IMG/VR virus record: IMGVR_UViG_638341084_000011
Location: 1-6,630 of that record
Origin: a virus
Taxonomy: Duplodnaviria; Heunggongvirae; Uroviricota; Caudoviricetes
Direction: 5' to 3' (one strand)
Length of the DNA: 6,630 nucleotides
The position numbers and the translations under genes are program-made. Under the pieces are notes generated by a model. It saw only the letters and a program-made list of their open reading frames with translations. It searched no databases and had not been told where the DNA came from. Every line of letters begins with the position of its first letter. Within the stretch, counting starts at the first letter, position 1. Positions 850 through 6,630 of the stretch are shown one piece after another.

Positions 850-1601
850 TTTCATCGTTATGCGATACCCGGACAGCATTTTCCACATGGAACCGTCTGG
901 CGCAGCGATTCGAACGTCGCCATGCTGCCACCGCAGGCAGACAGGGGACAATCACAACCTCGTACAACAGTCCGGTTGCAGAAAAAAATATTGCCACACT
1001 GAACTACGTCATGCTGGCAGCGGCGCAGACATACCGGGCAGAAGCTGCCAGCCAGGCACTGACTGCGGCACTGGATTTCAGTCGCCGGATGGATAATGCC
1101 GCCCGTGCACCTGTACTGGATGCCCCGTCCACCACAACCGGCACAGCCATCGGGGCCAGCAGCACATCCGCTACCGTCACACAGGGACAGTTACAGTTAA
1201 CTGCCATAACCCCGGACGGCGGTTTTTCACAGGTATCCTTTTCAGACAGTGGTACAGCCACGCCCCCGGTATTTGAAAGTGTGTCCGATATCGGAAAAAC
1301 AGCCGCCATGCTGGGGGCTGCACTGGATACCGTCATTCTGACGGCATCTGAGCAGGGCTTTTCGACAGACAGCGTTCAGCTTACGCAACTGCGTCTGCTG
1401 GTTGTTGCCGACCTGGAAAAACGCGGGCTGCAACTGGCGGGCAGTGAAACGCACCGCCTGCCGGAGACGATGCCTGCAATGGTGGCCCTGTACCGTTACA
1501 CAGGAAACAGCCGGAACTGGCAACGGCTGGCCCGCAGGAACGGTATCAGCAACCCGTTGTTTGTTCCCGGTGGTGTCAGTATTGAGGTGATTAATGAGTA
1601 A
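850..1601 (+). pseudogene. DNA circularisation protein (Mu N/gp43-like), 3' remnant; 5' half displaced by the IS66 insertion
   Basis: The same frame is open from the IS end through to stop TAA at 1599-1601, giving protein-like sequence (…[16 protein letters not shown]…[23 protein letters not shown]…). The first in-frame ATG is at 1011, with no Shine-Dalgarno sequence upstream. Its position immediately upstream of the baseplate hub gene matches the Mu order N-P-Q-V-W-R-S. About 250 codons remain, against roughly 490 aa for full-length Mu N (size from memory). Confidence 0.6.
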
Positions 1602-2733
1602 TACCGTCACGCTGCGAACGGATGGCAGGCTTTTTACCGGCTGGACGTCAGTCTCTGTCACCCGCTCGATTGAATCCGTAGCCGGATATTTTGAGCTGGG
1701 GGTGAACGTGCCACCGGGCACGGATTTATCCGGGCTGGCTCCGGGGAAGAAGTTCACGCTCGAAATCGAGGGGCAGATTGTCTGCACCGGTTATATCGAT
1801 TCACGGCGACGCCAGATGACCGCTGACAGTATGAAAATCACTGTCGCCGGACGTGACAAAACGGCTGACCTGATTGACTGTGCTGCCGTTTACAGTGGCG
1901 GACAGTGGAAAAAACGCACACTGGAGCAGATTGCGCGTGACCTGTGCGCTCCTTATGGCGTTACCGTTCGCTGGGAGCTTTCCGATAAGGAAAGTTCGGC
2001 AGCTTTTCCCGGCTTCACGCTGGACCATTCAGAAACCGTTTATGAGGCGCTGGTGCGTGCCTCCCGCGCACGCGGTGTACTGATGACCAGCAATGCCGCC
2101 GGAGAGCTGGTATTCAGCCGGGCTGCCAGCACAGCCACTGATGAGCTGGTTCTCGGAGAAAATCTGCTGACGCTGGATTTTGAGGAAGACTTCCGCGACC
2201 GGTTCAGCGAATACACCGTCAAGGGGTATGCCCGCGCAAATGGTGCTGAGGGTGATGATATTGATGCGAAAAGTATCGTCTCCCGGAAAGGGACCGCCAC
2301 TGACAGTGATGTGACCCGTTACAGACCGATGATCATCATTGCTGACAGCAAGATTACGGCGAAGGATGCACAGGCCCGCGCCCTGCGTGAGCAACGCCGC
2401 AGACTGGCAAAATCCATCACCTTTGAGGCAGAAATTGACGGATGGACTCGCAAGGACGGGCAACTCTGGATGCCGAACCTGCTGGTCACTATTGATGCCT
2501 CGAAATATGCCATCAAAACCACGGAATTACTGGTCAGCAAAGTCACCCTGATACTGAATGACCAGGACGGGCTGAAAACCCGCGTCAGCCTTGCACCACG
2601 CGAAGGCTTTCTGGTGCCGGTTGAAAGCGACCGTAAAAACAGGAAAGGCGGCGACAGTAACGGCGGTATTGATGCGCTGGTTGAAGATTATTATCGCAGA
2701 CACCCGGAGAAAACGCCGCCGTGGAAAGAGTAA
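1594..2733 (+). CDS. Phage baseplate hub protein (Mu P/gp44-like; P2 gpD-like late control D family)
   Basis: 379-aa ORF. Strong SD GAGGTG 5 nt upstream of ATG 1594. Start overlaps the stop of the upstream N remnant by 8 nt. Size and position match Mu gp44. Protein-like composition throughout. Confidence 0.8.
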
Positions 2734-3314
2734 ATGATTCCGCCATGAACCGCCTGCTGATGCCGCTGATGCGTCGTGTGCGCCTGATGCTTGCGCGTGC
2801 CGTTGTTAACGTGATTAACGACGGACGAAAGGTTCAGAACCTGCAGGTTGGTCTGCTGGATGATGAGGAATCTGATGAAGTGGAGCGCCTGCAAAATTAC
2901 GGGCATTTCAGCGTTCCTCTGCCGGGCGCAGAGGCGCTGATTGCCTGTGTGGGTGCACAACGTGATCAGGGGATTGCCGTTGTGGTGGAAGACCGCCGCT
3001 ACCGCCCGACAAATCTTGAACCGGGTGATGCTGGCATTTACCACCACGAGGGGCATCGTATCAGGCTGACAAAGGACGGACGCTGCATCATTACCTGTAA
3101 AACGGTTGAGGTTTACGCTGATGAAAGTATGACCGTTGACACACCCAGAACCACGTTTACCGGCGACGTTGAGATCCAGAAAGGTCTGGGCGTTAAAGGT
3201 AAAAGCCAGTTCGACAGCAATATTACTGCCCCGGATGCCATCATCAATGGCAAATCGACGGATAAGCATATCCACCGTGGCGATAGCGGCGGAACCACGG
3301 GGCCAATGCAATGA
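2721..3314 (+). CDS. Baseplate spike / puncturing-device protein (Mu gp45-like; P2 gpV-like)
   Basis: 197-aa ORF if started at GTG 2721 (GGAGA 11 nt upstream, overlapping the hub gene's end), or 189 aa from in-frame ATG 2745. Position after the hub gene and size match Mu gp45. Stop TGA 3312-3314 overlaps the next start (ATGA). Confidence 0.75.
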   Translation: MERVNDSAMNRLLMPLMRRVRLMLARAVVNVINDGRKVQNLQVGLLDDEESDEVERLQNYGHFSVPLPGAEALIACVGAQRDQGIAVVVEDRRYRPTNLEPGDAGIYHHEGHRIRLTKDGRCIITCKTVEVYADESMTVDTPRTTFTGDVEIQKGLGVKGKSQFDSNITAPDAIINGKSTDKHIHRGDSGGTTGPMQ

Positions 3315-3748
3315 CCGATTTAGCCATTATCTGGACGAACGGACGCGGCGATATTGCACAGGATGGCATTGATATGCTGACCGACGACAGCCTGACAACC
3401 GATGTGACAATCTCCCTGTTTACCGACCGGCGCTCGCTGGATTCTGACACGCTGCCGGATGGTTCAGATGATCGCCGTGGATGGTGGGGTGACAGTTACC
3501 GCGACCGCCCCATCGGTTCGCGGTTGTGGCTGTTATCACGTGAAAAAGCCACACCGGATACGCTGGAACGCGCCAGAGGGTATGCCGAAGAGGCGCTGGA
3601 ATGGCTGAAAACAGCGGGCCGGGTAAGTGCGATTAACGTCAGGGCGGAACAGTTACATCAGGGCTGGTTATACCTCTACATTGCACTGACATTACCGGAT
3701 GGTTCCGTTATTCCTTATGAGTTTAAAGCAGCATTTAACGGGGTTTAA
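3311..3748 (+). CDS. Mu gp46-like baseplate protein
   Basis: 145-aa ORF. ATG 3311 overlaps the upstream stop (ATGA), indicating translational coupling. Acidic N-terminal half (DDSLTTDVTISLFTDRRSLDSDTLPDGSDDRRGWWGD). Position and size fit the Mu gp46 family. Confidence 0.7.
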   Translation: MTDLAIIWTNGRGDIAQDGIDMLTDDSLTTDVTISLFTDRRSLDSDTLPDGSDDRRGWWGDSYRDRPIGSRLWLLSREKATPDTLERARGYAEEALEWLKTAGRVSAINVRAEQLHQGWLYLYIALTLPDGSVIPYEFKAAFNGV

Positions 3749-4831
3749 ATGGCTTATTCACCACCGACATTATCATCGCTGATTGCCCGTACAGAACAGA
3801 ATATTGAACAGCGCCTGCCGGGTAGCTGGCCTCAGGCCCGTGAAAAAACGCTGAGTGCCATTGCTTATGCTCAGGCGGGCCTTGCTGCCGGTTGTCACGA
3901 GCATATTTCATGGGTTGGACGGCAGATTATCCCGTCGACAGCAGATGAAGATGAGTTGCTGGAGCACTGCCGGTTCTGGGGGGTGCGCCGCAAACAGGCG
4001 ACAGCCGCCAGCGGCCCGCTGACTGTCACCACATCGGCAGCGACCACCATTCCTGCCGGTACACGCTGGCAGCGTGCTGATGGTGTGGTTTACAGCCTGG
4101 CTGATGCCATTGTGATTGACCGTGCAGGAACGACGGAAATTACCGTTACCGCACTGGCTGCCGGTGAGGCAGGAAATACCGGTGAGAATACCCTTTTAAC
4201 GTTGATCACCCCGGTTGCCTGTGTTGTTTCCGATGCCATCACTGTAAAAGGGTTTTCCGGTGGAGCTGATATTGAGAGTGCAGCGGAGCTGCTGTCACGG
4301 CTGGAATATCGTGTCCAGTATCCTCCGTTCGGCGGTAATCAGTTTGATTACGTCCGCTGGGCACGTGAAGTCAGCGGCGTTACCCGTGCCTGGTGTTTTC
4401 CGACATGGAAAGGCGGTGGCACAGTCGGGGTGACGTTTGTTATGGATAACCGGAGCAATATTTTTCCACAACCGGCAGACGTGGAACGCGTGGCGGATTA
4501 TATCGCCGGTCATACTGACCCGATCACCGGTCTGATTGTCGGACAGCCTGACGGTGTAAATGTCACTGTATTTGCGCCAAAGGCAAAGCCGGTAAATCCA
4601 CGGATTTATATATCACCGAAGACAGCCGAACTGAAACAGGCTATTACCCACGCCATTAATACCATGTTTTTTAATGAGGTGACGCCGGGCGGCGCACTTG
4701 CCACCTCCCGTATTATCCGTGCGGTGGCAGGTGTTACCGGTCTGGATGATTTTGAAGTGCGTTTCCCGACAGAGATCCAGCGTTCGGAGAATACGGAACT
4801 GTTAACACCGGGGACAATTGAATGGCTGTAA
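3749..4831 (+). CDS. Baseplate J-like wedge protein (Mu gp47-like; P2 gpJ / T4 gp6 family)
   Basis: 360-aa ORF. ATG 3749 directly abuts the upstream stop (TAAATG). Size and position match Mu gp47. Stop at 4829-4831 overlaps the next gene's start. Confidence 0.8.
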   Translation: MAYSPPTLSSLIARTEQNIEQRLPGSWPQAREKTLSAIAYAQAGLAAGCHEHISWVGRQIIPSTADEDELLEHCRFWGVRRKQATAASGPLTVTTSAATTIPAGTRWQRADGVVYSLADAIVIDRAGTTEITVTALAAGEAGNTGENTLLTLITPVACVVSDAITVKGFSGGADIESAAELLSRLEYRVQYPPFGGNQFDYVRWAREVSGVTRAWCFPTWKGGGTVGVTFVMDNRSNIFPQPADVERVADYIAGHTDPITGLIVGQPDGVNVTVFAPKAKPVNPRIYISPKTAELKQAITHAINTMFFNEVTPGGALATSRIIRAVAGVTGLDDFEVRFPTEIQRSENTELLTPGTIEWL

Positions 4832-5364
4832 CACCCTATCAGACGGCCTTTCTGCAATTACTGCCGTCAGGGCTTGCCTGGAATAAAAGCCCCGACAGCA
4901 AATTATCTGCGCTGGCGCAGGCCATCAGTGACGTGATTGCCAGTGCGGCGGATGATGCGCGGCAAATGCTGCGGGAGCGTTTCCCGTCCACATCCCGCTG
5001 GTATCTGGGGGAGTGGGAATCATTTCTGGGGTTGCCGGACTGTACAAGCGAAAACGGCACCCTGTCCGAACGCCAGCGGGCTGCCGCGAATAAAATGCGT
5101 ATGACCGGCAATCTGAGTCGGCGCTTTTATGAATGGCTGGCTGCGCAGTACGGTTTTACCGTCAGGCTGACGGATTCCACAGAAAGCCAGTGGGTTACGC
5201 AGGTCAATATTTACGGTATTAAAAATTATCGCAACGCAACGGTGCTGGATAATGTCCTGACGCCGTTGCGTGTTTATGAATCGGGTGCGCTGGAATGTTT
5301 ACTGGAGAAATATAAACCCGCGCATCAGATTTATAAATTTGTTTACCATGACGGAGATAACTAA
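4822..5364 (+). CDS. Mu gp48-like tail/baseplate protein (P2 gpI-like, DUF2313-type)
   Basis: 180-aa ORF starting MAVTPYQTAFLQLLPSGLAWNK. Start overlaps the gp47-like stop by 10 nt. Stop TAA 5362-5364 overlaps the tail-fibre ATG (TAATG). Lies between the baseplate-J gene and the tail fibre, as gp48 does in Mu. Confidence 0.7.
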   Translation: MAVTPYQTAFLQLLPSGLAWNKSPDSKLSALAQAISDVIASAADDARQMLRERFPSTSRWYLGEWESFLGLPDCTSENGTLSERQRAAANKMRMTGNLSRRFYEWLAAQYGFTVRLTDSTESQWVTQVNIYGIKNYRNATVLDNVLTPLRVYESGALECLLEKYKPAHQIYKFVYHDGDN

Positions 5365-6630
5365 TGTTTTATATTGATAACGACAGCGGCGTAACCGTCA
5401 TGCCGCCCGTATCCGCCCAGCGTAGTGCTATCGTTCGCTGGTTTTCAGAAGGTGACGGGAATAATGTTATCACATGGCCCGGCATGGACTGGTTTAATAT
5501 TGTTCAGGCGGAGTTATTAAACACGCTGGAAGAAGCCGGTATTCAACCGGATAAAACAAAATTAAACCAGCTTGCACTGTCCATTAAAGCCATTATGAGC
5601 AATAACGCGCTGCTGATAAAAAATAACCTCAGCGAAATTAAAACTGCCGGGGCATCAGCACAGCGTACAGCACGTGAAAATCTGGATATCTATGATGCCA
5701 GCCTGAACAAAAAAGGACTCGTTCAGCTAACCAGTGCCACTGACAGCCCCAGTGAAACGTTGGCAGCCACCGCAAAAGCGGTGAAAATTGCGATGGATAA
5801 TGCCAATGCTCGTCTGGCAAAAGACCGGAACGGAGCAGATATTCCCAATAAGCCGCTGTTTATCCAAAACGTCGGTTTACAGGAAACGGTAAACAAGGCT
5901 GGTAACGCTGTTCAAAAGACAGGCGATACCTTGTCCGGTGGACTTACTTTTGAAAACGACTCAATCCTTGCCTGGATTCGAAATACTGACTGGGCGAAGA
6001 TTGGTTTTAAAAATGATGCCGACAGCGACACTGATTCATACATGTGGTTTGAAACAGGCGACAACGGCAATGAATATTTCAAATGGAGAAGCAAACAAAG
6101 CACCACAACAAAAGACCTGATGAATCTTAAATGGGATGCTTTGTCTGTTCTTGTTAAAGCCCTTTTCAGCAGTGAAGTAAAAATATCGACAGTCAATGCA
6201 CTGAGGATATTTAATTCATCTTTTGGTGCCATTTTTCGCCGTTCTGAAGAATGCCTGCATATCATCCCTACACGAGAGAACGAGGGAGAAAATGGTGATA
6301 TAGGGCCACTACGCCCCTTTACGCTTAATCTCAGAACTGGTCGGATAAGCATGGGGCATGGTCTGGATGTTACAGGAGATATAACAACTAACGCCTGGGT
6401 TTATGCAAACAGGTTTGCTATTAACAGCAGTAATGGTATGTGGATTCAGATGCGCGATAACAACGCTATCTTTGGGAAAAATATAGTTAACACTGATAGC
6501 GCCCAGGCATTGCTACGTCAGGACCATGCTGATCGCAAATTTATGATTGGTGGTCTGGGTAATAAGCAATTTGGCATCTACATGATTAATAATTCAAGGA
6601 CAGCCAATGGCACCGATGGTCAGGCGTACA
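5364..6630 (+). CDS. Tail fibre protein (Mu S-like), 5' complete, 3' end beyond the window
   Basis: Not in the ORF track because no stop occurs before the window end. I translated by hand from ATG 5364 (GGAG 7-10 nt upstream) and found frame 0 open to 6630: MFYIDNDSGVTVMPPVSAQRSAIVRWFSEGDGNNVITWPGMDWFNIVQAELLNTLEEAGIQPDKTKL…KPLFIQNVGLQETVNKAGNAVQKTGDTLSGGLTFENDS…GQAY. Contains the K-T-G-D-T-L-S-G-G-L motif common to tail-fibre proteins, and follows the gp48-like gene as in Mu. Confidence 0.8.
   Translation, partial: MFYIDNDSGVTVMPPVSAQRSAIVRWFSEGDGNNVITWPGMDWFNIVQAELLNTLEEAGIQPDKTKLNQLALSIKAIMSNNALLIKNNLSEIKTAGASAQRTARENLDIYDASLNKKGLVQLTSATDSPSETLAATAKAVKIAMDNANARLAKDRNGADIPNKPLFIQNVGLQETVNKAGNAVQKTGDTLSGGLTFENDSILAWIRNTDWAKIGFKNDADSDTDSYMWFETGDNGNEYFKWRSKQSTTTKDLMNLKWDALSVLVKALFSSEVKISTVNALRIFNSSFGAIFRRSEECLHIIPTRENEGENGDIGPLRPFTLNLRTGRISMGHGLDVTGDITTNAWVYANRFAINSSNGMWIQMRDNNAIFGKNIVNTDSAQALLRQDHADRKFMIGGLGNKQFGIYMINNSRTANGTDGQAY
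5860..5885. other. gix/pix/hix-type crossover site for a Gin/Pin/Hin-family serine DNA invertase, embedded in the tail-fibre gene
   Basis: TTATCCAAAACGTCGGTTTACAGGAA is a 26-bp imperfect palindrome of two 12-bp half-sites around a 2-bp core. Its reverse complement TTCCTGTAAACCGACGTTTTGGATAA differs at one position from the Mu gixL sequence as I recall it (TTCCTGTAAACCGAGGTTTTGGATAA). Its location at the constant/variable junction of a tail-fibre gene is where these sites lie in Mu, P1 and e14. Confidence 0.65.

Follow-up and report, generated by a model that had tools for sequence, protein, structure and literature searches.

A Gin-type recombination site within the tail-fibre gene of a Mu-family Escherichia coli prophage, at the left end of an invertible G segment

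The DNA analyzed here, referred to as the window, is the entire 6630-bp draft contig AAJX02000080.1 (assembly GCA_000167895.4; locus L007). The first 849 bases (1-849) come from the right-hand end of an IS66-family element, with 100% identity to IS66 copies elsewhere and with an open reading frame (30-812) for the C-terminus of the IS66 transposase. The element meets Mu-like DNA at 849/850, and everything from position 850 onward belongs to the late region of an E. coli prophage of the Mu family (Muvirus). Over 850-6630 the identity is 98.1% to Mu, 98.4% to D108, and 97.9% to PhiR68_1, and a prophage in E. coli O111:H2 strain 12A, for which the genome is complete, is 100% identical over this stretch. 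The prophage genes in the window are as follows: the 3′ part of gene N (1011-1601), P/gp44 (1594-2733), gp45 (2721-3314; Pfam Phage_Mu_Gp45), gp46 (3311-3748; Pfam GP46), gp47 (3749-4831; Pfam Baseplate_J), gp48 (4822-5364; Pfam Phage_Mu_Gp48), and the tail-fibre gene S, which begins at 5364 and runs past the end of the contig. The order N-P-gp45-gp46-gp47-gp48-S, together with the high nucleotide identity to Mu, places the region within the Mu late operon genes. Among the baseplate and tail-fibre genes, neighbours share 1-13 bases (1594-1601, 2721-2733, 3311-3314, 4822-4831, and 5362-5366, the last as TAATG at the start of S), and these overlaps suggest translational coupling along the operon, as in Mu.

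Gene N is where the source prophage departs from Mu, with an IS66-family insertion inside it. The window starts within a copy of this element, and the element is complete in the related draft contig L004 (7393-9839), with three open reading frames (HTH_Tnp_1, TnpB_IS66, and a DDE transposase) and an 8-bp target duplication, TTTCATCG, on its two sides. N, which encodes the DNA circularization protein, is split after approximately codon 250, so the prophage is probably defective. The 40-mer spanning the IS66/N junction (832-871) had no match in the genome-contig or metagenome-contig collections. A homologue of the Mu late promoter is found within N at 1193-1259 on the plus strand, 98.5% identical to the promoter feature at 27287-27353 of AF083977; in Mu the corresponding promoter sits upstream of the late genes from P to U, S included. 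Since the predicted promoter lies 3′ of the IS66 insertion, the genes from P to S could still be transcribed if the activator C were made.

A preliminary description of the window had reported a 26-bp imperfect palindrome in frame within the tail-fibre open reading frame, at about codon 166, and had recognized in it the half-site pattern of Gin/Pin/Cin/Hin recombination sites. A 26-bp recombination site of the Din family, of the Gin type (gixL), is indeed present on the plus strand at 5860-5885, with the sequence TTATCCAAAACGTCGGTTTACAGGAA. It consists of two imperfectly symmetric 12-bp half-sites on either side of a 2-bp core: the outer half-site TTATCCAAAACG (5860-5871), which is part of the constant region of S, the core TC (5872-5873), and the inner half-site GGTTTACAGGAA (5874-5885), which is part of the invertible segment. 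On the minus strand this reads TTCCTGTAAACC, GA, and CGTTTTGGATAA. The TC at the centre (GA on the complementary strand) is the crossover dinucleotide; it falls in codon 170 (GTC, Val) and is presumably the place of the staggered cut by Gin. The site is in frame in S from the second base of codon 166, and its translation is KPLFIQNVGLQET (F-I-Q-N-V-G-L-Q-E).

As a palindrome the site is weak. Only 6 of its 13 pairs are self-complementary, 8.4% of the 26-mers in the window are equal or better, and an inverted-repeat search of the window did not include the site among the repeats that it reported. The site is real, but its dyad symmetry is non-significant when taken alone, and its significance thus rests on the match to known gix sites. 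Using the Din-family consensus and the list of sites in Table 3 of PMC3241671, 14 of the 15 specified positions are matched, and this is the sole such place in the window, where 0.01 would be expected by chance. Alignment to the gix, pix, cix, and hix sites, which had been proposed as a check, identified gix as the closest, with one mismatch to gixL (a match of 25/26 bases) and one to gixR. The related bixR and bixL differ by two and three bases, respectively, hixL by five, and cixR by six; cixL and pixR (eight each) and pixL (nine) are more remote. The earlier statement that the coding sequence after the site is AT-rich compared with the baseplate genes holds for the values themselves, since the GC fraction is 0.430 in S after the site and 0.544 across gp44-gp48, but the decrease does not coincide with the site. 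It starts at approximately 5100-5360, around the transition from gp48 to S, and the part of S before the site is already at 0.474.

The homologous 26-mer in Mu (AF083977) is TTATCCAAAACCTCGGTTTACAGGAA. The position annotated there as the ‘G-segment boundary’ (31966) is base 13 of this 26-mer, the first of the central dinucleotide, for which the equivalent in the window is 5872. The likeness to Mu gixL therefore extends to the gene, to the position within it (crossover at nucleotide 509 of S), and to the core dinucleotide, all of which are shared, and identity across the flanking genes is 98%. The site is thus identified both by its sequence and by its place at the homologous junction of the constant and variable parts of S. 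It differs from Mu gixL at position 12, where the window has G instead of C; the substitution falls on the first base of codon 170, with L170V as its consequence.

The crossover point divides S in two. The constant N-terminal part, Sc (5364-5871, plus strand), takes in codons 1-169 together with one further base, the first of codon 170. Over residues 1-169 the protein does not differ from Mu S. Sc is expressed in both orientations of the G segment. The remainder of the window (5872-6630, plus strand) is the left end of the G segment in its G(+) orientation and encodes Sv, the variable C-terminus of S, cut by the end of the contig. Downstream of the site the window is 100% identical to strain 12A, where the full S protein has 515 residues. 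Pfam matches in S are to Phage_fiber_2 and Gp34_trimer, and solved structures are available for the Mu tail fibre protein S (PDB 5yvq) and for an S/S′ fusion (8ju3). Compared with Mu S, the protein is a mosaic with 81% identity overall. Residues 1-264 are nearly identical, residues ∼265-352 (window 6155-6420) and 455-515 (the latter seen only in 12A) have diverged, and the blocks between the diverged stretches are again nearly identical to Mu. Mosaicism of this kind is typical for tail fibres, and the sequence comparison suggests a receptor specificity other than that of Mu G(+).

The contig ends 745 bp past the site, so neither the partner site nor gin is visible in the window, and that the source strain has them is inferred from relatives. 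Both had been anticipated downstream, as an inverted copy of the site and a recombinase of ∼190 amino acids, and in 12A both are found, a result that applies to the relative and not to the contig of the window itself. In 12A, positions 12586-12611 of the prophage locus (L001) contain the partner site, TTATCTAAAACCTCGGTTTACAGGAA, on the minus strand; it has two mismatches to the window site and the same core (GA/TC), and 3064 bp separate the two sites. An inverted partner site is also present in SfMu and in contig L009. The gene order in 12A is S-U-U′-Sv′-recombinase-com-mom (the last a mom-like gene), and this downstream architecture (U, U′, Sv′, gixR, gin, com, mom) is the same as in Mu. Between the sites, on the opposite strand, are the second assembly gene, U′, and a second tail-fibre C-terminus, Sv′. 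The recombinase starts 54 bp beyond the partner site and contains 197 residues, of which 192 of the 193 that can be aligned match Mu Gin; it differs from Gin in having four additional C-terminal residues. Its domains are Resolvase (PF00239) and HTH_7 (PF02796), and its N-terminus, MLIGYVRVS, places a serine at position 9. From gixR through the first 295 nucleotides of gin, 12A is 98% identical to Mu, with three substitutions inside gin, and the literature locates the Mu enhancer within this stretch.

The partner site in the relatives differs from Mu gixR in having T, not C, at position 6. The changed base therefore lies in the outer half of each site (G12 in gixL and T6 in gixR), and the inner half-sites are identical between the two, so that inversion restores the same sites. 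The right-hand site (TTCCTGTAAACCGAGGTTTTAGATAA; L001 12586-12611 and L016 13080-13105) is the same as bixR of the PinB system of Shigella boydii (PMC3241671), a hint that the ‘B segment’ of S. boydii is what remains of a Mu-like prophage of this type.

The evidence for inversion of the segment is comparative and comes from differences between genomes. The strain FDAARGOS_1059 contains the same prophage, with identical protein accessions for gp47, gp48, U, U′, and the recombinase. In this genome the Sv DNA of the window is detached from Sc and lies beside the recombinase gene, under the annotation ‘hypothetical protein’. Sc here continues in frame into Sv′, and the resulting tail fibre is intact, with 488 residues. 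FDAARGOS_1059 is therefore in the G(−) orientation and 12A, with its S of 515 residues, in G(+). In a pairwise BLAST comparison of the two, positions 9496-12611 of L001 are inverted at 99.8% identity, and the flanks are collinear at 99.9%. The endpoints of the inversion are the two 26-bp sites, in assemblies that are both closed. The genomes are collinear through Sc, as are the draft contigs L004 and L006, and sequence markers (position 12 of the site, and the 9th/10th bases after it) confine the exchange to 5872-5893 of the window. The proposal of an invertible cassette in the preliminary description is thus borne out by near-identical prophages in both orientations, and so is the accompanying proposal that alternative C-termini and assembly genes are swapped, with Sv′ and U′ on the opposite strand in 12A and the Sc-Sv′ fusion in FDAARGOS_1059. 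Seen across relatives, the DNA inverts and leaves an intact tail-fibre reading frame in either orientation.

Both orientations are also found more widely. Among 5426 complete E. coli genomes, the Sc-Sv junction is present in 23 and the Sc-Sv′ junction in 8, and the exact variant site occurs in seven IMG/VR contigs in which both orientations are represented. Drafts that have the same IS66/N junction as the window are in G(+) in three cases (L005, L006, and the window itself, L007) and in G(−) in two (L004 and L008), and the overlapping G-segment DNA of L004 and L006 is 99.9% identical in opposite orientation. Judged from these contigs, the presence of both orientations beside one IS66 junction suggests that inversion went on after the IS arrived; alternatively, the IS66 element may have inserted into a population already polymorphic for G orientation. 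It is established that Din invertases can stand in for one another, and the enzyme responsible for inversion after the insertion could be the Gin of the prophage itself or a different Din invertase supplied in trans.

Taken together, these observations lead us to interpret 5860-5885 as gixL, at the left end of the invertible G segment in an E. coli prophage of the Mu family, to which the established Gin mechanism would apply; we place the probability of this interpretation at approximately 0.95. The mechanism is drawn from the literature on Gin and Hin (PMC3575834, PMC3798978, PMC4406740). One Gin dimer would bind to each of the two inverted 26-bp gix sites, and in negatively supercoiled DNA the sites would meet, by analogy, at a Fis-bound enhancer within the start of gin to form an invertasome. 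Cleavage of all four strands, within the 2-bp core, would proceed through a phosphoserine link at Ser9, half of the Gin tetramer would turn through 180 degrees, and rejoining of the ends would leave ∼3.1 kb inverted. Because gixL is in frame at codons 166-174 of S, the constant 169-codon N-terminus is joined to either of two C-termini. In one orientation, that of the window (G(+), Sc-Sv), Sv would be expressed with the assembly gene U, and in the other Sv′ would be expressed with U′. This swap of the C-terminus would be predicted to alter receptor specificity, and hence host range. The site and the switch themselves are already known; they are the classic gixL of Mu and textbook biology.

The place of this site within the Din family can be judged from its relatives, which include bix (PinB, S. 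boydii), hix (Hin, Salmonella), cix (Cin, phage P1), pix (Pin, e14), and mix (Min, p15B). In the phage and plasmid members the site lies at the junction of the constant and variable parts of a tail-fibre gene, as it does here, whereas Hin switches a promoter and not a coding C-terminus. The core of hix, cix, pix, and mix is AA, and that of the window site is GA. A further close counterpart is the Shigella phage SfMu (KP010268; PMC4406740), which has the gixL of the window, G12 included, and the gixR of 12A, both without any difference. Up to the site, SfMu and the window share 98.6% identity; the SfMu record is in the G(−) orientation, and homology to the window consequently stops shortly after the site. 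It is an intact, inducible phage, in contrast to the IS-interrupted prophage of the window.

The authors of the SfMu study suggested that this one-base change beside the crossover bases might reduce or abolish inversion (PMC4406740), and their concern is one reason to consider that the window holds a descendant of Mu gixL that is no longer recombined, either through disablement of the site by the C-to-G change or through loss of gin from a decaying, IS-interrupted prophage. The interruption of N by the IS66-family element fits with such decay, and derivatives that are without gixR and most of gin do exist, L012 (below) being an example. We nevertheless consider this explanation to be unlikely. 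The exact pair of gixL and gixR sites is found in both orientations (12A against FDAARGOS_1059, and SfMu in G(−)), and this argues that the change to G12 does not abolish inversion, contrary to the suspicion raised for SfMu. Contigs with the same IS66 junction also exist in both orientations, and C is present at the equivalent position in the pixR and mix sites listed in PMC3241671. The combination of gixL with G12 and a gixR of the bixR type is, in our judgement, probably competent for inversion, and the switch would have gone on flipping even in a prophage that is broken by IS66 and that probably yields no infective particles. Compared with Mu, the G12 variant may invert at another rate or with another bias, and in the source lineage, with IS66 in N, the switch may be without phenotypic consequence.

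A second possibility, that the orientation differences arise from RecA-dependent homologous recombination between inverted repeats of ∼58 bp, or from errors in assembly, is highly improbable when compared with site-specific inversion by Gin. The inverted repeats do reach beyond the 26-bp sites (58 nt, 79% identity), and this part of the genome is one in which assemblers struggle, as all five drafts of the IS66 lineage break in the G segment. Against this, a repeat of this length and divergence falls far short of what efficient homologous recombination requires, the 22-bp interval to which the exchange is mapped starts at the core dinucleotide, an almost unchanged gin adjoins the segment, and the endpoints are clean in two closed, complete genomes. 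That the site is a chance imperfect palindrome in coding sequence, devoid of recombination function, would account for its weak dyad and the silence of the inverted-repeat search, but this idea is refuted by the match to Mu gixL at the homologous place in a homologous gene, by the fit to the Din consensus, and by inversion endpoints in relatives that coincide with the site, and its likelihood is negligible.

In terms of what this adds, the comparative data speak to the question left by the SfMu paper (PMC4406740) and indicate that the one-base change does not prevent inversion. For annotation, S at this locus is best described as Sc together with an exchangeable Sv or Sv′, and calls of ‘hypothetical protein’ beside gin represent the detached alternative C-terminus. 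Contig breaks and differences of orientation are to be expected at this locus and should not be taken for differences between strains. Beyond correct annotation the importance is small.

Breaks of this type are seen throughout the IS66-marked drafts. The window ends inside the invertible segment, and each of the five (L004-L008, the window included) breaks within the G segment, at differing points. These breaks are likely to result from mixed orientation, from tail-fibre repeats that are common to other prophages, or from both. Strain 12A, for example, has four places that match the S query. In ∼1000 complete E. coli genomes, homology to the window begins either with base 1 of the site or 8 nt before it (query positions 188 and 180 among the matches listed). 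The homologous DNA there follows different tail-fibre N-termini, some of which are annotated as ‘prophage tail fiber N-terminal domain-containing protein’. A start of homology at or near the site marks it as a module boundary common to several prophage families.

Two further contigs show rearranged forms of the segment. In a metagenome contig, L011 (IMGVR_UViG_3300023289_000038), constant S is joined to both ends of the G segment (3770-3795 and 6448-6473), one inner half-site is GGTTTACGAGAA, unlike gix, and its final 24 nt repeat the end of Sc as the reverse complement. This structure may be the product of an assembler confronted with both orientations in the sample, or a fold-back artefact. 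In the Mu-like contig L012 (3424-3990; IMGVR_UViG_2562617057_000010), the same gixL is present and Sv′ is cut after 436 nt, with the shortened Sv′ joined directly to the last codons of gin and followed by com. With gixR and most of gin deleted, the tail fibre of L012 should be locked in G(+).
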